64,000 nt of DNA from Candidatus Altimarinota bacterium (GTDB lineage: Bacteria > Patescibacteriota > Gracilibacteria > UBA1369). Shown here in pieces: positions 5,195 through 28,523 of the stretch. How positions within the stretch are numbered: position 1 is the stretch's first letter; every line of letters starts with the position of its first letter. The position numbers were made by a program, and so were the translations under genes. The stretch covers positions 64,001 through 128,000 of the forward strand of contig OY782391.1 in NCBI GenBank assembly GCA_963677745.1, written 5' to 3'. The notes under the pieces were generated by a model that did no database searches, had not been told where the DNA came from, and saw only the letters and a list, made by a program, of their open reading frames with translations.

Positions 5195-5210
5195 ATAAAA
5201 ATTCGATAAA

Positions 5211-7664: not shown

Positions 7665-7665
7665 T

Positions 7666-8001: not shown

Positions 8002-8003
8002 AA

Positions 8004-10865: not shown

Positions 10866-10870
10866 AAACC

Positions 10871-12427: not shown

Positions 12428-12658
12428 AAACAGGAAAATTGCCAAAATAGACAGGGTCAGATAAACGGCGATGGAGTGTTTGCGGATCCATTTTATCAGT
12501 TTTTCATGTTTCTTGGAAAAGGCCGGCCAATTCTTTTCGGCGTGCTGTTCGGTCAGCGACCAAGCGATTATTAGCAGAATTACACAAATCAGCCCAAGGG
12601 CCAATGACGGGAAAAAGCCTGTAAAAATGCCGACGCCTGCCGCGAATATATATTCCAT
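12398..12658 (-). CDS. Small multi-TM moron protein
   Basis: 2-3 hydrophobic segments; antisense to late operon. Confidence 0.55.
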   Translation of the reverse strand: MEYIFAAGVGIFTGFFPSLALGLICVILLIIAWSLTEQHAEKNWPAFSKKHEKLIKWIRKHSIAVYLTLSILAIFLFLLAANSFQN

Positions 12659-12668
12659 GGTTTTTTGA

Positions 12669-13088: not shown

Positions 13089-13315
13089 TCGCTTTCTATT
13101 AATTGTCTTTCGTCCTGGTGATGATAATGCTCTACCCGGGGAGTTCCCTGATCTTTCAATGCTTTCGCGACCGATTTCCATTTATCAACCTCGTGACAGA
13201 GTTCCTTTATGCGTTCCTCGTAAGAATAGATCAGAAAGCCAATAATTCCTAAAAAACCACCACAAACAACCCAGAAAAAAGGGTGAGCAATAATGTCTCT
13301 AAGTGTAAGGGTCAT
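13085..13315 (-). CDS. Single-TM moron protein
   Basis: FFWVVCGGFLGIIGFLIY followed by coiled coil. Confidence 0.55.
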   Translation of the reverse strand: MTLTLRDIIAHPFFWVVCGGFLGIIGFLIYSYEERIKELCHEVDKWKSVAKALKDQGTPRVEHYHHQDERQLIESE

Positions 13316-13449
13316 TTTTTTGATTATTTCAATTTATCCTATTTAAACACAATCATTTGCTATTGGTCAAATGTATTGTCTGAATCATGCCTTGATCCGT
13401 TTTGGTGGGGGTATATGATCGAAAAAATAAATTAAATAACCCACAAATT

Positions 13450-14232
13450 ATGGCAAGAAAACAGCCGGTCCAGCTTTCCTTGATACCTCACGAGATCCAG
13501 TCAAATATCGTCACACAAAGAGCCGTTGACGGATATATTAACGCCACGGCCATGTGTAAGGCGGCCGGGAGGGAGTTTTCAGAATATAAGAGGAACAAAG
13601 CTACTATTGCCTTTATTGACGCCCTTTCTGCCGAGCTGGGAATTTCACAGGACGGCTTAATTCAGTCCATTGTCGGAGGCGTCCCGGAATATCAGGGGAC
13701 TTGGATTCACCCTCAAGTCGCAATCCATTTGGCCCAATGGCTTTCCCCTCAATTTGCTGTCCAGGTATCAAAGTGGGTTTTTGAGTGGCTTTCTGGTGGA
13801 GGAAAGGACACTATGCCCTATCACCTGAGGCGGTACATAGCCAACAGGGGAAATATTCCTCACACTCACTTTTCTATTCTGAATGAGGTTATATTTGGGC
13901 TGGTCGCTCCGTTGGAAAGCCAGGGGTACACATTGCCCGAAAAACTGGTCCCGGACATCTCAGAGGGAAAAATGTTTTCGTCCTGGTTGATCTCAAAGGG
14001 CATAGATCCTAAAAAATTTCCCAGATATTACCATCGTTACGAGGACGGCCGGGTCGTAGATGCCCGATTATATCCCAACGAGGTTTTGGCCGAATTTAGA
14101 CAGCATTTTAATGAGGTTTGGCTGCCGGAAAGGTCAAAACTGTATTTTCAGGAAAGAGACCCAGAGGCTTTGCCATATCTGGAACAGGTGCTAATCGCCA
14201 TCGGTTACAACAAGCCAAAACAACTCAATTGA
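13450..14232 (+). CDS. KilA-N domain protein, BstA-like C-terminus
   Basis: KilA-N: QRAVDGYINATAMCK...GTWIHPQVAIHLAQWLSPQF; C-terminal HFS.L.E..VPDIS.G..Y.H.Y..YP..LAEFR. Confidence 0.8.
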   Translation: MARKQPVQLSLIPHEIQSNIVTQRAVDGYINATAMCKAAGREFSEYKRNKATIAFIDALSAELGISQDGLIQSIVGGVPEYQGTWIHPQVAIHLAQWLSPQFAVQVSKWVFEWLSGGGKDTMPYHLRRYIANRGNIPHTHFSILNEVIFGLVAPLESQGYTLPEKLVPDISEGKMFSSWLISKGIDPKKFPRYYHRYEDGRVVDARLYPNEVLAEFRQHFNEVWLPERSKLYFQERDPEALPYLEQVLIAIGYNKPKQLN

Positions 14233-14253
14233 CGGGGACGGATAATCATTAGC

Positions 14254-14298
14254 TTGCATTTTAAGAATTCCAGCGTATCTTTCGGAATTGGCGCAGGG
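14254..14298 (+). promoter_or_regulatory. Putative phage promoter with downstream GGCGCAGGG element
   Basis: TTGCAT-16-TATCTT, then GGCGCAGGG (14290-14298). Confidence 0.45.
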
Positions 14299-14312
14299 TA
14301 AGAAGTCAATTT

Positions 14313-15167
14313 ATGGCTATCACTTACCTGAGAACACCCGTTTATCGCGGAACAAATGTCGCTGGACAAACTGCAATGGTCAACGGCCAGCCTTATGTTA
14401 TGAGGGGTGCATCTTCTGGCGTGGCAACCCGGACGCTTCCAAACTATGTGCAAGGACGCCCAGTCACCGAAGATGACATCTCCAACGCCCGAAATGCTCA
14501 GGCCCAGGCTGTCGCAACAGTCGGCAATTACACCCCGGACGGGATCCAGATTAATAAAGTCCGCCAAGGGTGGCTTTCAAATCAAAACCCAGAATTGAGG
14601 GGAGGTATTGCCGAGGTTTCTGTTAATGGCAAGCCAATTCGCGTACCAAACGCGCTTTTACAACAAATGATGTTTACCGACGCCTGGAATCAGGGCCGGA
14701 GCAATGAAGTCGGCGATTTTTTCAATGGCAGAGCAAACCCGGATCCGAAAACTTATGGTTACACAAATTATGACGCGACCCAACAGCGTTTTGACAAGAT
14801 TTTAGCCGCAAATCCGCAATGGACAAATGACGCGCCGCTGAATCCTTACAAGGCGGCCGAGGAAAAAGCCCAGGCAGCCGCCGGCCGGTATCAAAAAATT
14901 ATGGACCAGATGGGACAACCCATGAAAGAAAGCCGGGCAGCAGGGGGACAATTTATGGGTGGCGACACTATGGGTGGCTTAAAAAGCGAGGCCGACAAGG
15001 CGTTGGCCGAGGCCCAATCATATTCCCCAGAACTTAACGCGCGCCGGGGCCGGTATTTTGGGGAATTGCAGGGTACGCGAATGCTCGAAGCACAAAGAAA
15101 AGCTTTTGAGGGTGGCGTTAAACCAACCTATTCAAATTTACCGATTCAGGAAAGAATTATTAAATAA
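14313..15167 (+). CDS. Hypothetical virion/ejection-type protein
   Basis: Q/G/A/N-rich 284-aa ORF with composition like the ejection proteins. Confidence 0.5.
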   Translation: MAITYLRTPVYRGTNVAGQTAMVNGQPYVMRGASSGVATRTLPNYVQGRPVTEDDISNARNAQAQAVATVGNYTPDGIQINKVRQGWLSNQNPELRGGIAEVSVNGKPIRVPNALLQQMMFTDAWNQGRSNEVGDFFNGRANPDPKTYGYTNYDATQQRFDKILAANPQWTNDAPLNPYKAAEEKAQAAAGRYQKIMDQMGQPMKESRAAGGQFMGGDTMGGLKSEADKALAEAQSYSPELNARRGRYFGELQGTRMLEAQRKAFEGGVKPTYSNLPIQERIIK

Positions 15168-15177
15168 CAAATCCAAA

Positions 15178-15375
15178 ATGAAAGATAAATTAATAAAATC
15201 AGCCTTAATCGCATTGGGCGGAGCTTTGATTACTGTTTTGCCCCTTTTAACTGTTGAAATAACCGACTGGCTCACAAAGTCCGATCCTATTGATTGGAAA
15301 ACGCCGGTTGCAATGGCGATAACTGCCGCTGGAACGTGGGCGGTAAACACAATCCGCGAGCTTATTAAAAAATAA
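15178..15375 (+). CDS. Holin (putative)
   Basis: 65 aa, two TM segments, basic ends, directly before endolysin. Confidence 0.65.
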   Translation: MKDKLIKSALIALGGALITVLPLLTVEITDWLTKSDPIDWKTPVAMAITAAGTWAVNTIRELIKK

Positions 15376-15379
15376 ATAT

Positions 15380-15994
15380 ATGCAGGCAATTTTCATTGAG
15401 GCCGGCCATGGAAAGTCTCTTTTAGGCATAAAAAAAGACGTCGGAGCGGTGGGAAAATTTGGCTCAAACGTCTATACTGAAAGATCAATTGTCCTGGAAC
15501 TGGCCCGGCGCATCATCACGATTTTAAAAGCCAAGCCAGAACTCAAACATTGTTTGATTCAAGGGAATGGTGTCGAAACTGATGCGACGATCAGAGCGAA
15601 AATGAAATACGTAAATACAGTAATTCAAGAAAATCGGTTTTTACCTTCCAAGTGTCTTGGTGTTGCAATCCACATGAACGCCAGCGGATCAAATCAACCA
15701 GGCGGATTTGAGACATGGTATCAAGTAAACGGGAAAAGCAAGCCACTTGCTGAATATATGGTTAGGGCTTGGCAAGAATACAAAATCACACCTTTGAGGC
15801 CGAGGCCGCTGAATAACAATAAAAATGGGCGTTACGGGCGATTCTATACCGACGACGCGCTTTGTCCTTACGTCATTATCGAAACTTCTTTTATTTCCAA
15901 TCTTGAGGACGTCAAATCAATTATCTCGAATTATGACCGGGCGGCCGAATGTTTGGCACATGGCATAATGGAGTTTATCAGAGCAAATGGCTAA
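15380..15994 (+). CDS. Endolysin, N-acetylmuramoyl-L-alanine amidase (Amidase_3)
   Basis: IEAGHG, E(R), AIHMNA, IIETSFISN zinc/catalytic motifs. Confidence 0.9.
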   Translation: MQAIFIEAGHGKSLLGIKKDVGAVGKFGSNVYTERSIVLELARRIITILKAKPELKHCLIQGNGVETDATIRAKMKYVNTVIQENRFLPSKCLGVAIHMNASGSNQPGGFETWYQVNGKSKPLAEYMVRAWQEYKITPLRPRPLNNNKNGRYGRFYTDDALCPYVIIETSFISNLEDVKSIISNYDRAAECLAHGIMEFIRANG

Positions 15995-16379
15995 AAAAAA
16001 CCGTTACTCGCAAACAATCCATCACGTCGTCCCAAGTTCCAGACGGGACGAGGGGTTTGACACTTCAAATAAACGCAATTTAAGGGATCTCCGCAAAACC
16101 TACCATGAAAACTGGCATCGTCTTTTTGCAAACAAAACGCCGGCTGAGATTATTGATTCGGTTGTCCAGATGCAGCACAATGTCATAAATCAAAAGGTCA
16201 GACGGGTAATTGAGGGGCTTTGCGATTTACCAAAATCTGATTTTTACATTCCAGACGTGTTGACCGAATATGCCGACGAAGATTTCGACCCGATGGACGT
16301 TGAGCTGGTCCGGGGAGAATTAAAAAAGCGGATCCAAGAATTACTTGACTGGATCGACGGTTTTAACGGTGATGTTTAG
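15987..16379 (+). CDS. HNH-like protein
   Basis: TIHHVVPSSR...N...HENWHRLF. Confidence 0.55.
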   Translation: MAKKNRYSQTIHHVVPSSRRDEGFDTSNKRNLRDLRKTYHENWHRLFANKTPAEIIDSVVQMQHNVINQKVRRVIEGLCDLPKSDFYIPDVLTEYADEDFDPMDVELVRGELKKRIQELLDWIDGFNGDV

Positions 16380-17241
16380 AGTGGATTTCCTGTAAATATT
16401 TGTCGGTAACGTGGGTATAAACCTGGGTTGTCGTTATTGAGGCGTGGCCCAAAAGTTGCTGAATTGCAGGCAGGGGAGCACCATTCCTTAAAAGCTCAGT
16501 TGCAAATGTATGGCGCAAACTATGGGGAGTAACTTTTTTCTTTATTCCGGCTTTCAGGGCGTAGGTTTTTACAATTATTTCGATCATCGCAACGCCCAGG
16601 CGTTTACCATTCCCGGAAACAAACAGCGCGTTTGATTTATCAGTCCTAAGGGACAAATACCGATCAAGACTTTTTCGGGCGACGTCCGAGATAAAAACAA
16701 GCCGATATTTTCGGCCTTTTCCTAAAACCCGGACATTGTTACTCAGCACATCGTCCCGATTCAAACTGGACAACTCCCGGACCCGGCAGCCGGTAGAATA
16801 CAAAACCCGGATTATCGCCGTGTTACGAATCGACCTGAACAAATCACAATCTTTTATCTCAAGTAATTTTTTCAGCTCCGGCATTTCCAAATAACACGGC
16901 TCCGGCCTGCTATATTTACAGGTTTCTATTTTATAGTATTTCAGCGTCGGGAAGTCCCGAATAAAACAAAATTTCAGAAATTGTCGGAGGACGATCAGGT
17001 GATACTGGACAGAGTTAAAACCGAGCCCCTTTTCCCTTAGTTTTAGGCGGAAACTATCAATATCCGAGCAATCTATCAGCTTTATATCTTTTCCCCGTAA
17101 AACCTCTAAAAACGCATATAAACAAGACTTGTAGTTTCTGAGCGTAAAAGGGGAGTAATTTTTGATAATTTCTAAATACTCTAGATATTTGTCAATCAAG
17201 TCAAGCACATGGTAAATCCGCCCGTCCACTATTTCACACAT
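16363..17241 (-). CDS. Tyrosine recombinase, XerC/XerD-like
   Basis: TGCRVREL, GKGRK, HSLRHTFAT, LLGH, TTTQVYTH (R-K-H-R-H-Y); 292 aa, no arm-binding N-domain. Confidence 0.95.
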   Translation of the reverse strand: MCEIVDGRIYHVLDLIDKYLEYLEIIKNYSPFTLRNYKSCLYAFLEVLRGKDIKLIDCSDIDSFRLKLREKGLGFNSVQYHLIVLRQFLKFCFIRDFPTLKYYKIETCKYSRPEPCYLEMPELKKLLEIKDCDLFRSIRNTAIIRVLYSTGCRVRELSSLNRDDVLSNNVRVLGKGRKYRLVFISDVARKSLDRYLSLRTDKSNALFVSGNGKRLGVAMIEIIVKTYALKAGIKKKVTPHSLRHTFATELLRNGAPLPAIQQLLGHASITTTQVYTHVTDKYLQEIHSKHHR

Positions 17242-17266
17242 ATTTAAACAAAGATTAAATAATTTA

Positions 17267-17434
17267 TTACAAATTTATTAACTTTTGTTTGGATATTGTT
17301 TTTGCGAGCGTAATTATTTCGTCTGCCTGGTCGGTCCCGACTGCATCGTTTAATTGGTCGAAAATTTCGATCATAGAAAGTGTCAGCTCCAACGCCTTGA
17401 GTTTTAAGACGTGAATTTTTTGTTTATTTGTCAT
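17267..17434 (-). CDS. Hypothetical 55-aa protein (below ORF-track cutoff)
   Basis: Manual translation MTNKQKIHVLKLKALELTLSMIEIF...; fills the operon gap. Confidence 0.45.
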   Translation of the reverse strand: MTNKQKIHVLKLKALELTLSMIEIFDQLNDAVGTDQADEIITLAKTISKQKLINL

Positions 17435-17621
17435 CTGGTTTGTGAAGTTTAAAGGTGGATTTTCTAAGCCGGATCCTGTTTAGAATAATGACCCTCGTTT
17501 TTGGGGTAGGTTGGCAGGGATTGTCCAGGGGATTTGCCGTCCTTAGCGAGCAGTTTTGACATTCCAAAACATCGAATCCTTCGGAGGTTTTAAATCCTGT
17601 CAGGATAAATCGGTGTTTCAT
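17424..17621 (-). CDS. Hypothetical protein (CxxC)
   Basis: Overlap-coupled ORF. Confidence 0.45.
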   Translation of the reverse strand: MKHRFILTGFKTSEGFDVLECQNCSLRTANPLDNPCQPTPKTRVIILNRIRLRKSTFKLHKPDDK

Positions 17622-17791
17622 GGCATTAAAAGGGTTAAACCCTCGCGCGAGATCATTGTTTTTCTGTCCGATCTGGACAGGTGGTTTCGCAGCCTGAATT
17701 CGTTGATTTTTAAGATTGCATAGAACGCCTGTTTGGAGACGCCTAAATATTTTGCCGCCATTTCGGCGTCAAACCATCGTTTTGGTTTCAT
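17618..17791 (-). CDS. Excisionase-like HTH protein (57 aa)
   Basis: Manual translation MKPKRWFDAEMAAKYLGVSKQAFYAILK..., MerR/Xis-type HTH pattern. Confidence 0.65.
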   Translation of the reverse strand: MKPKRWFDAEMAAKYLGVSKQAFYAILKINEFRLRNHLSRSDRKTMISREGLTLLMP

Positions 17792-17801
17792 AAGTTTTGG
17801 A

Positions 17802-17999
17802 TTATTTTATTTTTTGTTTAGCGAGCCATTTAAGCGATTCCCTTGCGAGTTTTAACTTTTGTCGGTTGTTTTCGAGTGTTCGGGGATTGGGTCTGATCCC
17901 AACCTGGTAAATTTGCCATTCTAAATGCTCGATTCTTTCCTTTAAAAGATATTTTAAGAGTGCTTTTGGGTTGTCGATTGGCTTTGTTTTTGGTGTCAT
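17802..17999 (-). CDS. Hypothetical phage protein
   Basis: ORF in early operon. Confidence 0.45.
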   Translation of the reverse strand: MTPKTKPIDNPKALLKYLLKERIEHLEWQIYQVGIRPNPRTLENNRQKLKLARESLKWLAKQKIK

Positions 18000-18123
18000 T
18001 TTTTGTTTGATAAGAAAATTTGACGATTTGGGTTGGCGTGAGCCCGGTTTCAGCCTGAATGAAAAGGATCGGGGCGTTCTTTCTAAGCAAGTCGAAAAGA
18101 CGCTCCCGGGTTTCGGTGAGCAT
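17830..18123 (-). CDS. Hypothetical phage protein (long overlap with neighbour)
   Basis: Good ATG context; C-terminal half overlaps 17802-17999. Confidence 0.35.
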   Translation of the reverse strand: MLTETRERLFDLLRKNAPILFIQAETGLTPTQIVKFSYQTKNDTKNKANRQPKSTLKISFKGKNRAFRMANLPGWDQTQSPNTRKQPTKVKTRKGIA

Positions 18124-18344
18124 TTTGTTTTTTTGGTTATATGTTAATGAAAGGGGAGAAAAATTAACGGGGGAGGTCTGTCATGTTAATTGCGGCTAAC
18201 TTGTTTTTTCCAATTCTTTCTTGGCTTTTTCAAGATCATCGGCAAGATACCTCAACGCGAAAATGTGTTCGTCCAGGGAATCGCAAAACCGCTGGGCGTT
18301 AATCACGGTGGCCAATAACAATAAGAATTTTTGAGTGTTTTCGT

Positions 18345-18749
18345 TCATTTTTTTGGGGTTAATAAATCCGAGTTTTCGTATATGTTTCCGATAAGTTCAA
18401 TGTCATAATCATAAAACTCACCTGCCCTATCCCGATATGTCGAAAGGGGGAAATACAACACAGAATTGTTGAACGCCCAAGTGTATTGATTGTATTCAAT
18501 GGCAAGGACTTTCCATTCAAAGTCGGGTTCTCCATGCTTCCAGTTTTCTTTCAGATTGTTTATGCGAACAAGGTCGCCTTCAAAAATTTCTTTTCCGTTT
18601 TTGTCGGTCAGGCCGGTAAACTGCATATAAACACAGTCAATAGTCGGATCAACGGCCGGCCTGATTCTGATTGCCTGTTCAAGGGAAAAAGGCTCTCCCA
18701 TTGTTTTGTCTGCCTTATTCCAAGCTCTAAATTTTATCGTTCTGGTCAT
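18345..18749 (-). CDS. YopX family protein
   Basis: IKFRAW...MQFTGLTDKNGKEIFEGD...ELIGNIYEN. Confidence 0.95.
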   Translation of the reverse strand: MTRTIKFRAWNKADKTMGEPFSLEQAIRIRPAVDPTIDCVYMQFTGLTDKNGKEIFEGDLVRINNLKENWKHGEPDFEWKVLAIEYNQYTWAFNNSVLYFPLSTYRDRAGEFYDYDIELIGNIYENSDLLTPKK

Positions 18750-19044
18750 TGGTTGGTTGATTAATTGGTTTGATTTGGACTTCCAGATCTACAAGATATT
18801 TTTTTAGTAAAAAAATCGTTTTCGGATTCTGATAATCAAGCTGGTTGGCCTTGATCTGGTTACAGGTTTTGCATAGAAAGCGGAAGTTTTCGGCATCTTC
18901 GTAAACCGCGTCGATCTGCAGAAGTTGCCGCATTAATTGGACCGGGATAATATGATCGACTGTTTCAGCTTGGCGGCCGCATGGACAAAGATGGGTTTCC
19001 GCTTCTTGCTGCCAAAGAAACAGTTTGGAGTGTTTCTTTTTCAT
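18727..19044 (-). CDS. HNH endonuclease
   Basis: CPCG..TVDHIIP..N..LCKTCN..K. Confidence 0.85.
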   Translation of the reverse strand: MKKKHSKLFLWQQEAETHLCPCGRQAETVDHIIPVQLMRQLLQIDAVYEDAENFRFLCKTCNQIKANQLDYQNPKTIFLLKKYLVDLEVQIKPINQPTNDQNDKI

Positions 19045-19260
19045 TTATTTGTAGGTGTCAAGAATACCTTTTCTGATAGCTTCCCATTGTTCCTCGGTCA
19101 ATACCACGTCCAGCAGGCCAGTCGTAATTATCGGCTGGGGGATTTCAGCCATACCCTCTCTACGATTTGACCAATGGTTTTGGTGTTCCTCGTATTCTTG
19201 CCGCTGGGCATCGTATTTGGGATTATCTTCTTGTTTTGTGATTCGCAATTTGTAGTACAT
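19045..19260 (-). CDS. Hypothetical phage protein
   Basis: Abutting ORF in operon. Confidence 0.55.
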   Translation of the reverse strand: MYYKLRITKQEDNPKYDAQRQEYEEHQNHWSNRREGMAEIPQPIITTGLLDVVLTEEQWEAIRKGILDTYK

Positions 19261-19286
19261 ATTTTGGGGGTTAATTTGGATTATTT

Positions 19287-19796
19287 TTAATCGACTTTGA
19301 ACGTGTTCAAAATTTCCTCGGCTCTTTTTAAACTGTGCAGGTCGGATTGGAATTTTTCTATTGCCTGAGCTAAAACATTTTGAACAGAATCTCTTTGCAT
19401 AATTTTCTGGTGCGGCAATAGGGGGACTTTAGGCAGTTTTATGGAGCTGGGTTTGGGACCACTTCGGGGGTTAGGCAGTCCGGCTGCCTTACGTTTTGCC
19501 CACCAGGCTTTTTTTGCGGCCGCCTGCCTTTCCCTGGCGGACGTTGGGTTATCAGTTCCCATTTCCCCGGGATCCGATTCGTCAATAACATCGCTTTCAA
19601 ATTTAGCCTGTTGTCTCCGGGCTGGGGCAGTCATCATAAGGTATTGACGCCGGACCTCCATATAAAGGGATTTGTCGTCGGCCAGTTCACATTCAAGCGC
19701 ATCAAAGCTGGTCAGTCCGTCCAAAACACGTTTCGCGTGGTGTTTCGCTTTGTTTTCCCGTTCTTCGGACGCTCTTTCTTCTTCGTTTTTAGTCAT
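19287..19796 (-). CDS. Hypothetical basic phage protein
   Basis: RERQAAAKKAWWAKRK motif typical of small DNA-binding modules. Confidence 0.55.
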   Translation of the reverse strand: MTKNEEERASEERENKAKHHAKRVLDGLTSFDALECELADDKSLYMEVRRQYLMMTAPARRQQAKFESDVIDESDPGEMGTDNPTSARERQAAAKKAWWAKRKAAGLPNPRSGPKPSSIKLPKVPLLPHQKIMQRDSVQNVLAQAIEKFQSDLHSLKRAEEILNTFKVD

Positions 19797-20067
19797 TGTT
19801 TATTTCGTTAAAAGTTGGACTTCGGTCGGTGTCGGCATAGGGCTCGATCAGTTTATAGGCCGCATCGATCCGGCCCCGGGCATGAGCTGTAACGTCGTTA
19901 ATTTCCTTAAATAAAACGACCTCGCCCGATTCCAGCCGGCAGATAAGCTCTTTTGTGCAGGTCAGGGTTTGGGCCAGTTCGTCCTTGGCGTCCTGGTTGT
20001 TTGTTTGGTCAAACAGTTCTTGAGCTTCCGCATGGTGAGCATAAAGGCTGTCTAAAGGGTTTTTCAT
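19789..20067 (-). CDS. Hypothetical phage protein
   Basis: ATGA-coupled ORF. Confidence 0.55.
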   Translation of the reverse strand: MKNPLDSLYAHHAEAQELFDQTNNQDAKDELAQTLTCTKELICRLESGEVVLFKEINDVTAHARGRIDAAYKLIEPYADTDRSPTFNEINND

Positions 20068-20276
20068 GGTTTTATTAGTGAATGAATTATGCGACGAAAC
20101 CAATTTCCCGGGAGGGGCTTTCCTTTTAAAAGGCCGACGGCTGTTTTTGTTCGCCTGATTGCCGCAACTCGGACCGTTGACCTGGTGGATTTTAGAGCCT
20201 TCCGATATTTGTTTCGTTTTGTAGGATCCTTTGGGGTTTTGATAAATCGAGCCCCTTTATTTTGGGTTGTTTTCAT
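20064..20276 (-). CDS. Hypothetical basic protein
   Basis: ATGA-coupled on both sides. Confidence 0.45.
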   Translation of the reverse strand: MKTTQNKGARFIKTPKDPTKRNKYRKALKSTRSTVRVAAIRRTKTAVGLLKGKPLPGNWFRRIIHSLIKP

Positions 20277-20521
20277 CTTAGGTTTTTAAGTGTTTCATTA
20301 AGCAAGTAACGGATCAGGTCAATTTCGCTTTCTATGCGATAACCTTCATAGGAAGCGGCCTCAGCGGTGGCCAAAACGTCCCGGGCTCTTTCAAGCCGGC
20401 ATTCATTATCGTGCCGAAGCCGGCCGGCCGGTTGTTCCTCGATGATGTCCTGGACCCGGGCAATTTCTTGTCTCGCTTCCTCCAATTCGGGTTTGATAAA
20501 GGATAGGGATAATTGGGTCAT
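20273..20521 (-). CDS. Hypothetical phage protein
   Basis: ATGA-coupled ORF. Confidence 0.55.
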   Translation of the reverse strand: MTQLSLSFIKPELEEARQEIARVQDIIEEQPAGRLRHDNECRLERARDVLATAEAASYEGYRIESEIDLIRYLLNETLKNLR

Positions 20522-20715
20522 TCTTCTGGTTTGTAACAGTATAAAAAGCCGTAGTCGTTGGTTGCCGTCTTGCCACCTATTTCCTTGCAGTTAGAAAGTT
20601 CTGCAAGGTTTAATTGATGTCGTTTGGCTTGTAATTCCTCCCTTGTTTCGAGAGTTGAGCAGCCAAAAAGAAAAAGGGCCGTTGCCGCTAAAAGAAAAAT
20701 TACTTTTTTGGGCAT
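20518..20715 (-). CDS. Small lipoprotein
   Basis: MPKKVIFLLAATALFLFGC lipobox; two further Cys. Confidence 0.7.
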   Translation of the reverse strand: MPKKVIFLLAATALFLFGCSTLETREELQAKRHQLNLAELSNCKEIGGKTATNDYGFLYCYKPEE

Positions 20716-20883
20716 TTGATTGGCTTAATTTTTAAGTGAGCAAGGCGGTAGCCGGCGAGCGGCCAGTTGTGTTTCTCAGTTAGGGCAAGCCTGCGTGAAA
20801 GGAAAACGTCAGTCGGTATTCCATTAGGTAAAATTAAAAACCAAAGATGCCATTGTTTAACTTTTTTCATAAATTTTGTTTGT

Positions 20884-21222
20884 TTAAGAATATTGTTTGA
20901 TAATTTCGATAGCTTCGTCTGCCCCGTAGCAAATATGGGCGGCCACGTTGTCGCATTTATTCAGATCGTCGATCCATATTTGTTGGGTGTCGCTGACTTT
21001 GCTTTGTTTTCGTCGTTTCATTTCAATAAAAACAAGACTGTCTTTGACAATCACCAGTAAATCGGGCAGTCCGGGGCGTAAGCCCTGCCGATAGTTTTTA
21101 GCCTTTTGGGCGTTGCTGGTGGTGTAGGTTGAATTGGGGATCGCGGTAAACTTAAACCCGTTATATTCCAGCCATTCGACAAACGCTGCCTGTTCCTCGG
21201 CCTCTTTTGGTGTTTCATTCAT
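20884..21222 (-). CDS. VRR-NUC domain nuclease
   Basis: E..EQ...IPN...GLRPGLPDL...FIEMKR...Q..W. Confidence 0.9.
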   Translation of the reverse strand: MNETPKEAEEQAAFVEWLEYNGFKFTAIPNSTYTTSNAQKAKNYRQGLRPGLPDLLVIVKDSLVFIEMKRRKQSKVSDTQQIWIDDLNKCDNVAAHICYGADEAIEIIKQYS

Positions 21223-21503
21223 GGCCGGAGGGTTAGAATGTCTGGAAAAAGATCATAAAGTTTTCTTGCCTGGACAACCGATTGTCGAGCTGCCTTTTTT
21301 TTGTGTAATTTTGCATGGCATTTAGAGCAGCAAATTAAAAGGTTGTCTTTATGATTCAAATTCGGGTGTTTGGGGGCTTCGGAGCGGAAAACAATATGAT
21401 GGACTTCCCAAAAGAATGTCCGGCTTGTTCCGCACATCTGGCAGCTTAGAAACCCCTGTTGATCGATCAGTTCTTTCTTGGCTTCCGCTGCCGTTTCTAG
21501 CAT
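21219..21503 (-). CDS. HNH endonuclease
   Basis: CQMCG..EVHHI..NL..CCSKCHAKLH. Confidence 0.85.
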   Translation of the reverse strand: MLETAAEAKKELIDQQGFLSCQMCGTSRTFFWEVHHIVFRSEAPKHPNLNHKDNLLICCSKCHAKLHKKKAARQSVVQARKLYDLFPDILTLRP

Positions 21504-21682
21504 TGGTCGAGCGGTTTAATTGTGACCTCGAAATGCATATTTTCCGGGTAGGCTTCCAACCCGATCACCTGGGCAAACAAAGCGCGCTCGACTTCCATTT
21601 CGACGCCTATCTGGCCCCGGTTTTTTAGGGATTTGTTGTTCTTAACCAACACCTCGTTGGTGATAAATTTAATTTCTTGCAT
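21497..21682 (-). CDS. Hypothetical phage protein
   Basis: ORF in operon. Confidence 0.5.
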   Translation of the reverse strand: MQEIKFITNEVLVKNNKSLKNRGQIGVEMEVERALFAQVIGLEAYPENMHFEVTIKPLDQC

Positions 21683-21694
21683 TGAAAATTTTTG

Positions 21695-21973
21695 TTATGT
21701 GTTAATTTTTGGGTAAATCTGCCTTATGCCGCATGATTCGATACACCAAATCACTTGGGCGTTGATCTTTTCAGCGGTGCGGATTGCCTCGTTTTCATAA
21801 TGAGATTCAAAAACGATTTGTCCGTCCTTCCGCACCTGGTATGAATTGGCCTCAAGGTCGGCCTGGTCGCGCTTTTTTTGTGATTCCTCCCAGATTTTCC
21901 GTTCCTGTTTGTCTTTCAGGCTTTCGGCTTCTGCGCCCTGCCATTGCTCAAACTTTTGTGTTTTTTTGGTCAT
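21695..21973 (-). CDS. Hypothetical phage protein
   Basis: ORF in operon. Confidence 0.5.
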   Translation of the reverse strand: MTKKTQKFEQWQGAEAESLKDKQERKIWEESQKKRDQADLEANSYQVRKDGQIVFESHYENEAIRTAEKINAQVIWCIESCGIRQIYPKINT

Positions 21974-22130
21974 CAAGTTGTTGTTATTGGTGGATCCTCG
22001 GAAAGTAGTCCTTTACTTTTCAGGTATGCAATATGGGGGGAGGGCTTGGCCGGGACATAACGGCAGTTCCCCATTTTCTTTGCATTTTTCGCCCTCCGCC
22101 TATCTGCTCTATTTGTCATCAATTATTTGG

Positions 22131-22352
22131 TTAAAGTGTTTTTTGAGCGACGTTCGGGACGGGGCAGCTTGAGCCGGAGCAGGGGAGATTCAATTGTCCG
22201 TCAAACGTGACGTGTCCACGGACCTGACGGGCGAAACAATAGGTCAGCGGCAAACCCTCGTTATGCGCCTGGACAAAGTCCCAGCCGCAAGGTGCGGAGG
22301 CGTTACCGAGCCAGAAAAGAGCGACGAACATGGAAGCGATTAGTTTTTTCAT
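22131..22352 (-). CDS. Small secreted Cys-containing protein
   Basis: Signal peptide MKKLIASMFVALFWLGNASA; four Cys in mature part. Confidence 0.6.
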   Translation of the reverse strand: MKKLIASMFVALFWLGNASAPCGWDFVQAHNEGLPLTYCFARQVRGHVTFDGQLNLPCSGSSCPVPNVAQKTL

Positions 22353-22377
22353 TTTGATTGGGTTAATGAAATAAAAA

Positions 22378-22560
22378 CTATTCACGAAATTTAATGCCCC
22401 AAATAAAAACTGTAATTGAGGCGGCGGCGAGCAGGGTCGCCAGTAGTGCGAAGCCAAACAGGGCAGCGGAAATTGTGTAAGTGATAAACATTAAGTAAGC
22501 TCCCCAAACGCAATTAAATAAAAGCAGGGAAAGCGTGCATGAGTGGATAGCGAATTTCAT
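22378..22560 (-). CDS. Small two-TM protein
   Basis: Nearly entirely hydrophobic 60 aa. Confidence 0.55.
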   Translation of the reverse strand: MKFAIHSCTLSLLLFNCVWGAYLMFITYTISAALFGFALLATLLAAASITVFIWGIKFRE

Positions 22561-22642
22561 TTTGTTTTGGTTATTAATTAAGACGCCCGGGGCTGGCCCG
22601 GGTCGGGTAGGGCTGGTCAAGCCCCTTTGATTACGGTTGAAA

Positions 22643-23176
22643 CTACGGGAACAAAATCATGTTTTTTACTTTCGCGCGCCGGTTATAGCCGCAAAACTTC
22701 TTTTTTCCGCATGAAGTCGTCCAGTCTGGCTGGTTATAGACTTTCCAATGATATTCAGCGATTTCTTTAATCGAGATTTCCTTTTTCAGGATCCGGGCGA
22801 TCATTTCCTTATGGTAATAAGAATTCAGCCCGAAAGAATAATCCCAGCTCCCGTCCCGGTTGCGGTTCGGGTGTTTGATAAACGGGTCGAAACTTCCGTT
22901 TTCCGCTGCCATTGTCAGGATAAAGTCTTTATCTCCGCCGGAGACTTCCCAGAATATTCGGAGGGCATCTTGGGCAATCGCTCCTTTCCAGCTTCGGAAT
23001 ACTGGAAAGTTATTAACTGGGTTATCGTCTCCGATAAGGCCAACAGCTCCTTTATCAGGTTGTAGTGCGCCCGGAGCGTTCGCCAAATCATCACTTGCCC
23101 CGTCCCCAGGCAAAGAATCGCCAGGGCGAGAAATGACAGCAGAATTTCCATCGGAAGAGGGGTTAAAGTTTAACAT
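22643..23176 (-). CDS. Lysozyme/lytic-transglycosylase-like domain protein (probably C-terminal part of a frameshift fusion)
   Basis: TMAAENG...NRDGSWDYSFGLN resembles the SLT catalytic-Glu and NxxGSxDxG..N motifs. Confidence 0.5.
   Translation of the reverse strand: MLNFNPSSDGNSAVISRPGDSLPGDGASDDLANAPGALQPDKGAVGLIGDDNPVNNFPVFRSWKGAIAQDALRIFWEVSGGDKDFILTMAAENGSFDPFIKHPNRNRDGSWDYSFGLNSYYHKEMIARILKKEISIKEIAEYHWKVYNQPDWTTSCGKKKFCGYNRRAKVKNMILFP
22915..23151 (-). CDS. Possible overprinted membrane protein
   Basis: MEILLSFLALAILCLGTG hydrophobic N-terminus nested in the linker of 22643-23176. Confidence 0.35.
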   Translation of the reverse strand: MEILLSFLALAILCLGTGQVMIWRTLRAHYNLIKELLALSETITQLITFQYSEAGKERLPKMPSEYSGKSPAEIKTLS

Positions 23177-23205
23177 GCCGGTTTTCGGCTTAGCCGGCGT
23201 GCCGG

Positions 23206-23523
23206 TTAAAAAGAACAGTCCTGGTCCCGTTTCTTGGCCAGATCGTTTCTGTCGATGTTTTCAAGTTTCACCCCGTTCATATCATCTTCGAGTTTAAGAG
23301 AAGCTAAATTTTTTATTAATTCGCATCTTTTAACAGCGGTTTCATGCTCGAAATTTTCGAGGATTAACTGAGCAGCAGGGGATTGGGCCTGATAATTGTC
23401 TTTCGCCTGGACATCAGGTTGAGATATCCAAATATAAGCGCAGAAAGCCAGGACGACGATTGCCGTCAGTCCGATTACATTTTGCTTAATAGATAAGCCG
23501 TTTTTTGTTTTTTCAGTATTCAT
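23206..23523 (-). CDS. N-terminally membrane-anchored protein
   Basis: TM VIGLTAIVVLAFCAYIWI; ends TTT-TAA before a GC-rich structure. Confidence 0.65.
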   Translation of the reverse strand: MNTEKTKNGLSIKQNVIGLTAIVVLAFCAYIWISQPDVQAKDNYQAQSPAAQLILENFEHETAVKRCELIKNLASLKLEDDMNGVKLENIDRNDLAKKRDQDCSF

Positions 23524-23527
23524 TGTT

Positions 23528-23710
23528 TTATTTTTTAGTGGTTAATTTCCTTGCTGCTCTGTTGCAGCGATCGCAGCCGCTAACTTGCCAAGGTTCGTAA
23601 ACCTTTTCCCCACAATAGCGACATTCGTAGGGGGACATTGATAGGCGGCATTCAAAGCATTTGGTTTCCCAAATTCTTAAAGAATTGCCGCATTTACAGG
23701 TTCTAATCAT
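23528..23710 (-). CDS. Cys-rich zinc-finger protein
   Basis: CKC, CFEC, CRYC, CDRC. Confidence 0.6.
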   Translation of the reverse strand: MIRTCKCGNSLRIWETKCFECRLSMSPYECRYCGEKVYEPWQVSGCDRCNRAARKLTTKK

Positions 23711-23901
23711 GGCAAATTGAATTATGTTGCCTGACGTTGTTCTGGATCTGGTTTAGGGATTCGACCTGATGGACAAGCCGGAAAACCTGTTCAAAGTCCA
23801 GGGGATTGGTAATGTCGGCCAAATTTGATTTGACCTTTTGTTGATCTTGCATGATAATTGTTGGTGAATGAATGATTAAGGCCGTTTGCAGACGGTCTTT
23901 T

Positions 23902-24057
23902 TTAGTGCGCCATCGCTGGCGCGTGGTATTTGCAAAGCATTTCGCGACCCTGATCTTCGCCGTCGTCATCGTAAATGACGGCTTCGGTGACAGCGTGATT
24001 TTTGCAATTGGGAAAGTCGCAGGCGACATAGTCGCCGGCATCTTGTAATTTGTGCAT
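23902..24057 (-). CDS. Small zinc-finger-like protein (51 aa)
   Basis: Manual translation MHKLQDAGDYVACDFPNC...LCKYH. Confidence 0.5.
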   Translation of the reverse strand: MHKLQDAGDYVACDFPNCKNHAVTEAVIYDDDGEDQGREMLCKYHAPAMAH

Positions 24058-24060
24058 AAT

Positions 24061-24732
24061 TTAGAAGTTAGGAGGTGAAATATCGCGGTCCGGGACGACA
24101 ATGTCGTTTAACCAAAGTTCTTTATCGGTTGCGGATCCGTCTTTTGGAGCGCGGTAATAAACCCTATCGCCGTTCTTAACTACTGCATACCAGGATCGGC
24201 CCTCAAAAGCCCCGGTTACCATATCGTTACCGTCTTTGTCCTTGCCCTGGTAAGTCCAGTATTTATTCTTTCCTTCCCGGGCCTGTTTTGCGGCTCTAGT
24301 AGGGGAATTGCCGTCCTCTTTTTGGTCATCTTTCTGGGTGTTTTTCCAGACATCTTTGCCTATTTCCAGATAGGAGCCAATCTTGGTGAGGGCATCGGTC
24401 ATGGCCCCTTTCAGGGCGTCGCCCTTGTCCTCGTTGTCGTTTCCACCAAACTGTTCAAGCTCGATGTCATATTCTTGGACGGTAAAAGTTGCCTTGACAG
24501 TAAGCATTCGGGAAACTTTTTGCTCACCTTGTTTTGTCGTATATTCGCGATTTTCCTCGCCCAAACATTCGGCCTTTAATTTCCAGCCGCCTATTCCAAA
24601 CACTTGGTTTAGACGTTCGGTTACATAGATGGCGTTAATTGAGGAAAGGTGTCGTTTGGTCGGGTGCGGTTTGATTGCTTCGGGCGGTAAAGGCTCTCGA
24701 AGCATCGCCGCCAGATTTTCAGGTAGTTTCAT
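24061..24732 (-). CDS. Rad52/Sak-family single-strand annealing protein
   Basis: LREPLP..I..LSSI...YVTERLNQVFG.GGW...KGAMTDAL.K. Confidence 0.8.
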   Translation of the reverse strand: MKLPENLAAMLREPLPPEAIKPHPTKRHLSSINAIYVTERLNQVFGIGGWKLKAECLGEENREYTTKQGEQKVSRMLTVKATFTVQEYDIELEQFGGNDNEDKGDALKGAMTDALTKIGSYLEIGKDVWKNTQKDDQKEDGNSPTRAAKQAREGKNKYWTYQGKDKDGNDMVTGAFEGRSWYAVVKNGDRVYYRAPKDGSATDKELWLNDIVVPDRDISPPNF

Positions 24733-24800
24733 TGGATTAATTGGTTACAGAAAAAGACCTGTCATTGAGGCAGGGGCAATTTCTTTCGTTTATAGAGGCT

Positions 24801-25049
24801 TTACGCCTTTTTTGTGTAGCGATTCCCAGTCTTGCGATTAGGGAAGCTATAACGGGATTTGCGTTTAAAAGCGTCCATTTTGGCTAACAGTTCAGGCGCA
24901 AACCTTGCAGCGAGCGTATAATTTAGAAGCTCGGTAATGGTGGTCTGATCTTGGACAGCCTTTTTTTTCATAGAATCAATAATCGACCTATGAATTCGGA
25001 ATCGACTTTCTTTCGCGTCCTCCCGTGGGAACAGTCCGATTATTGGCAT
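24801..25049 (-). CDS. Ribbon-helix-helix regulator (putative)
   Basis: SRFRIHRSIIDSMKKKAVQDQTTITELLNYTL; first gene of the early operon. Confidence 0.55.
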   Translation of the reverse strand: MPIIGLFPREDAKESRFRIHRSIIDSMKKKAVQDQTTITELLNYTLAARFAPELLAKMDAFKRKSRYSFPNRKTGNRYTKKA

Positions 25050-25075
25050 AAGAGATGGAAATTAATTTGTTGGTA

Positions 25076-25127
25076 TTGACCGCATGGCGGCTGCGGAATA
25101 TAATATCACCGTATTTGATCTTTGCAA
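25076..25127. promoter_or_regulatory. Overlapping opposed sigma70-type promoters
   Basis: + strand TTGACC-17-TATAAT (25076-25104); - strand TTGCAA-16-TATTAT with extended TG (25127-25100). Confidence 0.6.
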
Positions 25128-25153
25128 TCCAGGGATTCCCAGACTTCTCTAGC

Positions 25154-25181
25154 ATTTCGCACAAGATACATTGTGCAAAAT
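25154..25181. other. dif-like Xer recombination site / prophage attachment junction
   Basis: ATTTCGCACAA-GATACA-TTGTGCAAAAT: 11-6-11 layout, arms inverted with one mismatch; reverse complement matches E. coli dif at 19/28 by my count; sits at the phage/host boundary. Confidence 0.8.
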
Positions 25182-25223: not shown

Positions 25224-26888
25224 CTATGAATAGTTGCCATGGTTTACAGGCACATTCAATCTCTTTGCCAGATTTTCAACTGTCATATTCTTCAGTGAAT
25301 CTGAATTTTGAGTTTCCAGAAATTTATAACAAGCAGCCGCTTTGCTTCCGCTGTCAAGACCCAGCATGAAATTTACAAACCTTACTCTGTTTTGAATAGC
25401 CAGCAAATCCCCATAATCCCCTTTTGGAGTGCCTTCATTATTGTTTTTGCCGCTAATTATCATCATCAGATTTCTAAATACAATGGCCTGCGTCGGATTC
25501 ATCGGCACCTTGGCAATATCGGTCGGAACAAAGAGTTTTGATGCCATCTCATACATGGCACGATTGGAAATAATCGAATTTAGTTCAGGACTTACGTAGC
25601 CACGCTCCGGACTATTGGAAGATTCCATTTCGTGGCCAAGATACAATATATTAACCTCTTTTTTAAATTCATTTTCACCAACAACAGCTGATCCGTTAAT
25701 CACACTGTCATTAAAAATATAGACGTTTTTAGGCTTTCCCTGTTCATCCAACAAAGGTTTTCCGTTCTCCATCAATTGTCTTACCTGAAATTCCGATACC
25801 TGACCTTCTCCGCTTTTACTCGGAAATTTAATCTGATATACCCCCGGCCTGATCTGATTGATGGCAATTTCAGTGTTTTCCGACAATTTGCTACCGGCTG
25901 AAATGTCAACATAGCCATAATCGGAACCGTTGAAGGTGGAAGGAGCGGTTGAAGCCACGGTTTTCGTTGCTTCCTCCTGTTTTTTCTGCTGTTCTTCCAG
26001 TTCTTTCGCTTTTGCTTCAGCCAATTTAGCCAATTCCTCATTCCATTTTTCCTCAGTCATCGTTTCGTCGCCCATCCAGGCCACCATATCCGTATTTAAA
26101 TCCTTGACTGTTTTCTTGGCCACCAGCATTTGTTTGTAGTCGCCCATCAGATCAGCAAACAGGCTTTCTATACTTGTTTTCAGGGGCTCAATGGCTACTT
26201 TATCTCCAAGATCGGAAAATACTCCTTCCTTGAATCCTTTTAGCAGACCATCCTTCAATTTTGCCTGTTCCGACCCTTCCGCATTAAAATAATCCTCGAT
26301 CTTGATGCGATTGTCAGGATTGTCAAAAAACGCAGCGCTTTTAACATTTATTTCTTCGGCTTTCTTTGCTTTACCCGCTTCCCTCTTTTCCGGATCCTCC
26401 TCCTTGGTCAGGTCTGTGTAAATTTGGTCGACATACTTGGTAATTCTTTTAAGCATCAATTCATTCCGGATATTCTCCAATTCTTTTTCCTGATTTTTCA
26501 AAACAAATTCTTCAATGGACATACTGCTTCTGACCGGCTTGCCGTTTTCATCCAATGCAGTCAGGTATTGATCCCGCCAACCATCCGGTTTGCGGTAACT
26601 CTCCGTATTCCATTTAAAATCCCTGAATACTTTTTCATAGGCTTTTTCAGGATTTTGCAGCATCTCCTCTTCCTGATTTTTCTTTTCTTCCTGCTCATTC
26701 ATTTTGGCTCTGACTTCTTCGCGCACGCTGGAAATCCTTTCAGCTTTTTTAGTCTGAAAACTTTCGCGTTTTTTCTCACGCAATCTGTTCAGCATCGCCA
26801 AATTATCGGCTGCCAAACCGGGCATTTTCCGCGGTTCTCCTGGGGCTTGTTCGATCGGGTGCGTTTCTAATGGTTTGGCTGGGGACAT
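25224..26888 (-). CDS. Hypothetical protein, E/K-rich coiled coil
   Basis: 554-aa ORF, no recognised motif. Confidence 0.75.
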   Translation of the reverse strand: MSPAKPLETHPIEQAPGEPRKMPGLAADNLAMLNRLREKKRESFQTKKAERISSVREEVRAKMNEQEEKKNQEEEMLQNPEKAYEKVFRDFKWNTESYRKPDGWRDQYLTALDENGKPVRSSMSIEEFVLKNQEKELENIRNELMLKRITKYVDQIYTDLTKEEDPEKREAGKAKKAEEINVKSAAFFDNPDNRIKIEDYFNAEGSEQAKLKDGLLKGFKEGVFSDLGDKVAIEPLKTSIESLFADLMGDYKQMLVAKKTVKDLNTDMVAWMGDETMTEEKWNEELAKLAEAKAKELEEQQKKQEEATKTVASTAPSTFNGSDYGYVDISAGSKLSENTEIAINQIRPGVYQIKFPSKSGEGQVSEFQVRQLMENGKPLLDEQGKPKNVYIFNDSVINGSAVVGENEFKKEVNILYLGHEMESSNSPERGYVSPELNSIISNRAMYEMASKLFVPTDIAKVPMNPTQAIVFRNLMMIISGKNNNEGTPKGDYGDLLAIQNRVRFVNFMLGLDSGSKAAACYKFLETQNSDSLKNMTVENLAKRLNVPVNHGNYS

Positions 26889-26915: not shown

Positions 26916-28523
26916 TCATTTTTCCAGTCTTTTCACCATATACGTCCCTTCCTGATGATAACCCAGCTTTCGGTAATATTCTCTCACCCCAATGCCGGAA
27001 ATAACTGCCAGCTTGTGAAAACCGTTTTTTAAAGCAATGTCCTCCGCGGTCTTCATCATTCTTCGGCCCAAGCCTATGTGCTGTGAAACATCCCGTTCCT
27101 TGCTATCTATGGACACCAGTTCACCATAAGCATGCACCTCTCTTATCAAGGCAGCTCCCTCCAGTTCCGTAATAAAATGTTTCTTGCCCTGCAGAGAATA
27201 TGAAGAAAACCTCAATCTGAGCAAAGAACATAATTTATCGCTGTCGGGCTGATCATAACTGATAAAAAACTCCTGTCCGCCCGATGCTTCAAATTGCCTT
27301 ATATTCATGCTCAAATCTGACAAATTGACTTTCTGCTCCTTAATTTCACGGCTGCGTATATCACGCGACGTAATGCCGCGCAAAGCCATTTCTGTTTCCA
27401 CAAATTGCCTGAGATTGGAGAGTTTGGAGCCGGCAATAACGGTATCCGAGGGGATGTCCCTGTAAATTCTGGTAACTCTCACATATTCCGGCCAGAGCTG
27501 GGTCATTTTTATCATCAATTCTATCAGTTCTGTATCACTGTAACTTTTATATTTCCCGTTACGGTAAACCTGTTCCAGCTGAGACCAGGGCACCACAATG
27601 CAGGGATATACTTTCATCCAGTCAGGCCTGTAGGCGGGGTTTGCAAACAACTCCTTCATGTCCGCCAGATCAATTTCGGGTGTAGAGCCGTACAAATTCG
27701 GCATCATATGAACATTAATCTTGAAAGCTGCGTCTCGCAACAATTGCATGGCCAGCTTCGTTTCGGCAATGCCATGACCACGTCTGTTCATTTCCAAGAC
27801 TCTGTCATTTAGAGACTGTACCCCGATTTCCACTTTGGTGCAACCTAGCCGCCTCAGATGCAAAATTTCTTTCTCATTCACATGATCAGGCCTTGTTTCG
27901 AAAGATAAACCAATACAGCGGTTATCGGCCTTTTCATTGCGCTTTTGAGCCTCCAATAAGGTTGTGGCCGGGGGGAGCGGGTAATTTAAAGCATTGAAAA
28001 TGCTTTTGGTAAAATCATTCTGATAGCGCTTCGGATAAAATGAAAACGTCCCCCCGGCCACAACCAGATCTATTTTGTCTGTTTTATGACCGGTTGTCTT
28101 CAAGGAAAAAAGTCTGTTTTTGACCTGCCGGTAGGAGGAAAACTTATTCAGTATTGCTCTCATCATGGCCGGCTCATTGGAAAGATAACTCTTGGGCATT
28201 CCCGGTTCCGTCGGACAAAAAAGACACTTTCCCGGACAGGGAAAAGATTTAGTAAGTACAGTAATATTGGCGATACCCGATTTGGTGCGGACTGAACGCC
28301 GTCTGAGAAACTTTAAAAAATCCGGATTTTCAGCCAGACTCCCCTCTTTAACCATTTCCCGGTAAATTCGTATCAATTCCACATTGGTAACCGATGAAAC
28401 CCGGTACTTTGAACTGATCTCATTTTTGAGACTTTGCAGCTGCTGCTGGCTGGAAAGCTTTTCGGAGTAAGCCCTCTCAATCAACTCTCTATAGGCATTT
28501 TCATTAACTTTTCGCTTCAACAT
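26916..28523 (-). CDS. elp3: Elp3 tRNA uridine(34) carboxymethylase (radical SAM + KAT)
   Basis: CPGKCLFC, PKSY, ETRPD, QHIGLG, ISGIGVREYYRKLGY. Confidence 0.95.
   Translation of the reverse strand: MLKRKVNENAYRELIERAYSEKLSSQQQLQSLKNEISSKYRVSSVTNVELIRIYREMVKEGSLAENPDFLKFLRRRSVRTKSGIANITVLTKSFPCPGKCLFCPTEPGMPKSYLSNEPAMMRAILNKFSSYRQVKNRLFSLKTTGHKTDKIDLVVAGGTFSFYPKRYQNDFTKSIFNALNYPLPPATTLLEAQKRNEKADNRCIGLSFETRPDHVNEKEILHLRRLGCTKVEIGVQSLNDRVLEMNRRGHGIAETKLAMQLLRDAAFKINVHMMPNLYGSTPEIDLADMKELFANPAYRPDWMKVYPCIVVPWSQLEQVYRNGKYKSYSDTELIELMIKMTQLWPEYVRVTRIYRDIPSDTVIAGSKLSNLRQFVETEMALRGITSRDIRSREIKEQKVNLSDLSMNIRQFEASGGQEFFISYDQPDSDKLCSLLRLRFSSYSLQGKKHFITELEGAALIREVHAYGELVSIDSKERDVSQHIGLGRRMMKTAEDIALKNGFHKLAVISGIGVREYYRKLGYHQEGTYMVKRLEK

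Follow-up and report, generated by a model that had tools for sequence, protein, structure and literature searches.

The window analysed here, a 64,000-nucleotide stretch (bases 64,001-128,000 of one 1,335,835-bp contig, G000:C1), passes from phage genes to host genes at a 28-bp inverted repeat, and this arrangement raises two questions: is the repeat the chromosomal dif site of a small-genome bacterium, and how did a tailed phage come to lie beside it? As an integration target, dif has so far been known mainly for filamentous viruses. Our overall reading, which we consider likely, is that the 28-bp repeat is dif and that a tailed phage recombined into it, probably by way of its own Xer-family recombinase.

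The repeat at window 25154-25181, ATTTCGCACAA-GATACA-TTGTGCAAAAT, consists of two 11-nt arms that are spaced by 6 nt and complementary at 10 of 11 positions (91%), in agreement with an earlier note on this DNA that had described an 11-6-11 inverted repeat at the phage/host boundary. This layout fits the definition of dif quoted in a passage of PMC8371274, namely 28 bp made up of two 11-bp inverted arms and a 6-bp central region. The earlier note had also aligned the reverse complement of the repeat with E. coli dif at 19 of 28 positions, a figure that we reproduced, both manually and with a script, using the sequence given in a passage of PMC3603311. The likeness itself is unexceptional: a scan of the genome against E. 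coli dif returned eight positions also at 19/28, one at 20 and one at 22, or ten at 19/28 and above. Inverted repeats of this layout with at most one mismatch number 2 in the window and 65 in the genome, and shuffled versions of the window (n=30) hold 0.6 +/- 0.6 each. With 65 repeats genome-wide and ten positions scoring at least 19/28, neither the repeat nor its resemblance to E. coli dif, taken alone, goes beyond chance. The site is instead distinguished by its second copy, by attP, by empty sites, and by its conservation and position. We also considered a better dif elsewhere in the genome. The sole closer match that this check brought forward, the best at 22/28 (genome 1,205,788-1,205,815, L167:1501-1528), occurs in none of the 40 relatives examined, lies across two ORFs of the minus strand and is probably a chance look-alike.

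Only one further copy of the 28-mer was found when the genome was searched at up to seven mismatches. This second copy, which the earlier note had expected to the left of the window, lies at genome 55,860-55,887 (L002:11860-11887) in the same orientation, 33,294 bp upstream and 8.1 kb left of the window, in the spacer past recG and a 92-aa ORF. Its sequence, ATTTCGTACAAGATACATTATTCTGAAT, represents attL, and it agrees with attR at 10/11 positions of the left arm, 6/6 of the spacer and 7/11 of the right arm; the two have a 12-bp stretch, ACAAGATACATT, in common, with one difference in the left arm and four in the right. The attR site is identical to the single sites of two relatives (G004 and G030). 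A free form of a related phage is provided by a 35,949-bp IMG/VR contig (G061) whose TerL is 84% identical and which is collinear with the circularised prophage, running straight from the right end of the prophage into its left end. At that join it carries attP, ATTTTGTACAA-GATACA-TTATTCTGAAT, whose flanks correspond, on the left, to the phage side of attR and, on the right, to that of attL. In attP, one dif arm is retained along with the spacer, and the other arm is replaced; this phage-specific arm is identical in the two diverged phages, whose flanks differ.

The empty counterpart of the locus is found in a genome of the same genus (G002), where a lone 28-mer stands between orf92 and a homologue of orf554. 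The gene order there (PocR-PAS, RecG, orf92, site, orf554, radical SAM, MTase, WecG, GatB) matches the host flanks, and its nucleotide flanks align with the host sides of attL and attR; the scores are 65 and 88, and controls taken from the phage sides reach 27 and 23. The expectation that the same 28-mer would occupy an empty locus in relatives was thus confirmed. In addition, attR is bridged at host-like depth by contigs from four runs of two studies, one of which may be the source sample, and no loose contig ends occur at the site among the 24 matches listed from these runs; as contigs drop rare forms, they permit no inference either way on excision. An artefact, in which phage and host contigs were joined during assembly at a palindrome present by chance, might be entertained on the grounds that the genome holds 65 such repeats, but this explanation is vanishingly improbable: attL, attP and the empty attB fit a single recombination event, the junction is spanned in four runs from two studies, and the site is conserved in relatives. 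From attL, attR, the attP of G061, the empty site of G002 and the bridging contigs, integration by site-specific recombination within the 28-mer is established, and the prophage is precisely bounded, with attL, attR, attP and attB all identified. Table 1 gives its coordinates, together with those of its main genes and of the adjoining host genes.

Table 1. Features of the prophage and of the adjoining host DNA (window positions unless another frame is named).
Feature	Position	Strand	Match or remark
Prophage, 33,294 bp	genome 55,888-89,153	.	right 25.2 kb = window 1..25153; left 8.1 kb outside the window
TerL, 629-aa protein, major head protein	L002:14241-19998, just left of the window		TerL PF03237/PF17289, phrog_2; head phrog_267
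Virion module	251..12427	+	Pfam and PHROGs
Scaffold-like protein	251-739	+	Pfam/PHROGs
SU10-adaptor-like protein	2425-3087	+	SU10-adaptor domain, 3.9e-17
Large proteins of 686, 817, 953 (CHAP domain) and 518 aa	within 251..12427	+	probably tail or injection
KilA-N / BstA-like protein	13402..14232	+	PF04383 2.8e-25; phrog_6287 4e-60
Endolysin (N-acetylmuramoyl-L-alanine amidase)	15380..15994	+	PF01520; phrog_435
Xer-family tyrosine recombinase, 292 aa	16363..17241	-	PF00589 5e-38, PF02899
Early module, transcribed away from attR	17830..25049	-	YopX, two HNH, VRR-NUC, Rad52-like, small ORFs
Rad52-like recombinase	24061-24732	-	Pfam/PHROGs
attR	25154..25181	.	regenerated complete dif-like site; left arm from the phage, right arm from the host, core common to both
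Adjoining host gene on the right, 554 aa (orf554)	25224..26888	-	no Pfam or PHROG match
ELP3-like radical SAM gene	26916..28523	-	conserved right-hand neighbour in relatives

The integrated element can be assigned to the Caudoviricetes, since it encodes TerL, a major head protein, a scaffold, an SU10 adaptor and an endolysin; a replication-initiator-like HTH protein was also recognised within it (Pfam/PHROGs). No prophage protein matched a portal profile in Pfam or PHROGs, and tail-tube, sheath and tape-measure matches were absent among the 40 prophage proteins scanned, many of which had no match of any kind. The claim of a tailed prophage at a candidate dif is therefore borne out by attL, attP, the empty site and the tailed-phage genes. 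The description of the phage as podovirus-like stands less firmly: one SU10-adaptor domain, with tail-tube, sheath and tape-measure genes undetected, speaks for it, but no further podovirus-type match was obtained. The KilA-N / BstA-like protein is a candidate for prophage-borne abortive-infection defence in a CPR-type host. Querying 204 other genomes of the order with TerL returned no related prophages. The element described here offers a precisely bounded prophage in a group in which lysogeny is poorly documented.

Outside the prophage, host genes flank both junctions: uvrC, rmuC, obg, pth, rplU, tyrS and recG to the left, and the radical SAM gene, gatB, ileS and further genes to the right. 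Beyond attR, 20 of 27 ORFs lie on the minus strand and hence point toward the site (ORFs of 100 aa or more, selected greedily without overlap, rather than gene calls), a share similar to the 23 of 30 host CDSs counted in the earlier note. The 554-aa gene at the junction of the two arms is fast-evolving, being ~30% identical in the same-genus G002, where its neighbours are 70-83% identical. RecG stands beside the site at 13 of 19 relative loci and on 6 of 10 metagenome contigs, and at six loci (L003, L004, L014, L016, L018 and L022) the site is still present although a search within 1.5 kb found no RecG.

The 28-mer is widely conserved among relatives as a single-copy element. At no more than three mismatches it occurs in 24 of 60 relatives, one copy each, including 21 of 35 family genomes, and a reversed-pattern control gave no match in the same 60. 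A variant with the spacer GATATA is present in single copy in all five further family genomes that had lacked a match, bringing the family total to at least 26 of the 35 other genomes. Ten metagenome contigs each carry one full site, with no second site and no phage genes, and the genome under study has the full site plus the hybrid attL only. Metagenome contigs gave no match to the 21-mer of attL/attP type. The spacer and right arm are near-invariant among relatives, and the outer left arm is variable. A second 12-mer core in one relative (G018) was set aside as a chance match inside a lysine-rich coding frame.

The site also occupies a distinctive position in the composition of the chromosome. 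The mean-subtracted cumulative GC skew reaches its maximum at genome 89,137, 17 bp from the site at 89,154, and with the prophage removed the maximum falls at 55,825, 35 bp from the junction. The best two-level skew fit has its breaks at the site and at 711 kb, where dnaN and a 340-bp AT-rich spacer are located; a local fit with one breakpoint, by contrast, places the step away from the junction, at ~29.5 kb. Without the prophage the chromosome measures 1,302.5 kb, of which 622 kb (47.8%) separate the site from dnaN, and in two complete relatives this distance is ~707 kb of ~1.5 Mb and ~745 kb of ~1.4 Mb, although these relative positions may reflect inherited synteny, so that agreement among family genomes does not amount to independent tests. 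Motifs of the GGGG type switch sign at 86-91 kb. GC skew is negative genome-wide (the plus strand is C-rich), at about -0.13 between 89 and 711 kb and about -0.03 elsewhere, and third codon positions are negative too, in genes on both strands. Because the skew changes in amplitude and never in sign, the designation of a terminus rests on this amplitude change and on G-tract polarity. The cumulative-skew inflection proposed as a check in the earlier note is accordingly found, with one qualification: the detrended curve turns 17-35 bp from the site, but the turn is one of amplitude, the sign remaining constant.

This one-sided skew around the site recurs in relatives. When seven genomes are aligned on the site, the single-base step there measures 0.21, 0.10, 0.067, 0.047 and 0.047 in five and is near zero in the other two, at 0.015 (G017) and 0.003 (G001); the GGGG/CCCC step is clear in six of the seven. 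G-rich, KOPS-like octamers show origin-to-terminus skew in both arms (e.g. 23:7 and 28:3), which is weak support because these words were picked from many using the assumed arms. The dnaA gene, at 233.5 kb, is ~145 kb from the site, hence not opposite to it, and far from dnaN, with no skew break; at 711 kb no cluster of consensus DnaA boxes was found. Two exact DnaA boxes lie 160 bp apart at G000:C1:241181 and 241340, ~7 kb from dnaA. A one-sided G/C disparity between strands has been reported for UBA1400 Microgenomates (Kadnikov et al., 2020; PMC7143001), where, in the passage concerned, it is explained by adjacent origin and terminus or by one-way replication. The present chromosome resembles that case in that its cumulative GC skew falls over its whole length, but differs in that its amplitude breaks sharply twice, once at the site and once at dnaN. 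The site is a fixed landmark for the question raised in that passage, of how chromosomes with one-sided skew are replicated; it bears on the question and does not settle it.

The host recombination machinery is compatible with a dif function. A 319-aa Xer-type recombinase is encoded in the host at 880 kb (the site being at 56/89 kb). Of 35 family genomes, 34 have it as a conserved enzyme, and in 15 of these it is the sole hit. Its score lies above the XerA-type cut-off of NCBIfam (222 bits; cut-off 220) and below the cut-offs for XerC and XerD. The host also has an FtsK with a gamma domain. The earlier note had remarked that near-symmetric arms suit a single-recombinase Xer system, and the finding of one conserved host Xer agrees with this. 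A second, sporadic tyrosine recombinase of 270 aa is encoded in the host 2 kb from the two DnaA boxes near 241 kb. From the single-copy conservation, the composition switch, the place opposite dnaN, the single Xer and the FtsK gamma domain, we infer that the 28-mer is very likely the chromosomal dif of this small-genome lineage. Integration by itself is no proof of this, since any conserved site may serve as target for a phage that brings its own integrase.

We also considered whether the 28-mer might be some other host element, such as a protein-binding or terminator-like palindrome, that merely serves as attB, the real dif being elsewhere or absent. The site does lie between the convergent recG and orf554, with RecG adjacent at the 13 of 19 loci and 6 of 10 contigs given above, the skew keeps its sign, and the phage has its own recombinase, all of which would suit such an element. 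A terminator is hard to reconcile with a hairpin that is weak (-5.3 kcal/mol as DNA) and lacks a T-run, however, and the persistence of the site in the six loci in which no RecG turned up within 1.5 kb speaks against a tie to that neighbour. Its 11-6-11 layout matches the dif definition in the PMC8371274 passage, it coincides with the composition switch opposite dnaN, and the one sequence that resembles E. coli dif more strongly is unconserved and overlaps coding frames. We therefore regard a non-dif host element as improbable.

Assuming that the 28-mer is dif, a mechanism can be outlined. At the 28-mer, where the replication arms meet, a single host Xer under the direction of FtsK would resolve chromosome dimers. 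A temperate tailed phage of 33.3 kb brought in an attP composed of a dif-type arm, the identical 6-bp spacer and a phage-specific second arm, and strand exchange within the shared 12 bp yielded the two junctions: attL, a hybrid of host arm and phage-specific arm, and attR, a complete consensus-type dif regenerated by integration. With a complete dif at attR, the lysogen would keep dimer resolution. Recombination would most likely be carried out by the two-domain Xer/Cre-type enzyme of the phage, alone or together with host Xer on the dif-type arms. How such a lysogen avoids FtsK-driven loss of the prophage is a question that this arrangement raises.

The phage enzyme has the features of a Xer-family recombinase. 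It consists of a SAM-like core-binding domain and a catalytic domain with no arm-binding domain, scores 236 bits with the NCBIfam XerA-type model (cut-off 220), and is 40% identical to host Xer over its full length, an alignment in which all of the R-K-H-R-H-Y catalytic motifs are visible. Its three closest relatives (83, 75 and 61% identical) are on phage-sized contigs, and the free phage G061 also encodes a recombinase. The nearest non-phage relatives are thousands of chromosomal recombinases at 43-49% identity, those that are named among the 120 matches listed belonging mostly to Patescibacteria/CPR groups. In the recombinase tree the phage enzymes form a separate clade (support 100/99) amid the chromosomal ones.

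A distant relative of the phage is organised differently. The viral contig G210 (42,463 bp, CheckV 100% complete; TerL 34% identical) has no tyrosine recombinase and carries a near-perfect 11-6-11 dif-like palindrome, ATGTCGCACAA-TATACA-TTCTGCGACAT (L069:8997-9024), in the spacer from which its early and late modules diverge; attP occupies the same place in the present phage. No host dif matching this palindrome was found in 401 genomes of the class. Other viral contigs (L122/L126, L123 and L124; 33-37% GC, no tyrosine recombinase) contain the 19-mer of left arm plus spacer; we treat them as unrelated, as their number is close to the estimated chance expectation and they have no protein in common with phage or host.

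These observations bear on the relationship of the prophage to Xer-exploiting elements (IMEX), which, in the passages of PMC5357621 and PMC12715192 drawn on here, have no recombinase of their own and are filamentous, double-jelly-roll or islands. As in IMEX, a candidate dif at one end and a dif-like site at the other border the prophage, attP imitates the centre and one arm and has a divergent second arm, and one junction regenerates a canonical dif. Unlike them, it is a tailed dsDNA phage of 33 kb that itself encodes a Xer-family recombinase, and its host seemingly has one Xer rather than XerC and XerD. The prophage therefore appears IMEX-like in layout and not in enzyme supply. The proposal in the earlier note of a dif-integrating phage is accordingly upheld as regards integration at the candidate dif, but since the phage carries its own Xer-family enzyme it need not exploit host Xer and is not an IMEX in the strict sense.

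It is nevertheless conceivable that the phage is a true IMEX, integrated by host Xer acting on the dif-type arms, with the phage recombinase serving another purpose: multimer resolution, excision, or binding of the phage-specific arm alone as partner in a heterotetramer. The structure of attP, with one dif arm and the spacer kept exactly and the other arm degraded, is what would be expected, and the same layout is described for TLC-phi, GGI and the 'left-armed' Vibrio DJR phages in the passages of PMC5357621 and PMC12715192. The identity of the phage-specific arm in two phages with differing flanks implies that it is bound by something, the recombinase gene is 8 kb from attP rather than adjacent, and G210 has a full dif-like palindrome with no tyrosine recombinase. 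However, the recombinase, which in the present phage has every catalytic motif in place, has been retained in the phage and its three closest relatives, and the host dif that G210's site would match did not turn up in the 401 genomes of the class. On balance we find this explanation doubtful and favour integration by the phage enzyme.

A broader scheme can be added, which we offer as speculation and think unlikely as a whole. A lineage of CPR tailed phages may have adopted an IMEX lifestyle in two grades. In the prophage described here, a private Xer paralogue would pair with host Xer on an asymmetric attP, giving a phage-only counterpart of the XerC/XerD system, with control of direction and with attL shielded from FtsK-driven excision, and G210 would have lost the recombinase and rely wholly on host Xer through its full palindromic dif mimic. 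Under this scheme, a conserved dif opposite dnaN would also mean that the one-sided skew reported for some CPR lineages does not arise from a side-by-side origin and terminus.

Returning to integration by the phage enzyme at dif, the system can be placed among known ones. It resembles the single-recombinase systems (archaeal XerA/dif, XerS/difSL and XerH/difH) in having one conserved Xer and near-palindromic arms, and archaeal dif in particular in its 28-bp, 11-6-11 site. According to a review passage, xerS and xerH adjoin their sites; in contrast, the host xer here is far from the 28-mer. With lambda-like phages that target tRNA genes the prophage shares a tyrosine recombinase, an attP x attB reaction and a conserved host target, but its recombinase has no arm-binding domain and is not encoded beside attP, and it is integrated not in a tRNA or protein gene but between genes, in a dif-type site of 28 bp. 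In the literature covered, which did not extend to subscription journals, we found neither a tailed phage at dif nor a dif described for CPR bacteria. For this uncultivated family of small-genome bacteria, the locus supplies a concrete candidate for dif together with a system based on a single Xer.

Several other features were observed in the host part of the window. A G+C-rich island at 34500-36300 (0.55-0.58, against ~0.42 around it) holds long overlapping ORFs on both strands and gave no Pfam, Rfam or tandem-repeat match; the Rfam scan of the window returned tRNA-Ala only. Farther right, a 2162-aa ORF on the minus strand (55521-62009) has no Pfam match, and over it the local GC skew is reversed (+0.07 to +0.11), with an AT skew of -0.30 to -0.34. 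Between these two, on the minus strand at 46141-48891, a 916-aa protein with HerA / TraG / VirD4-type coupling-protein domains is encoded amid host transport and glycosyltransferase genes.
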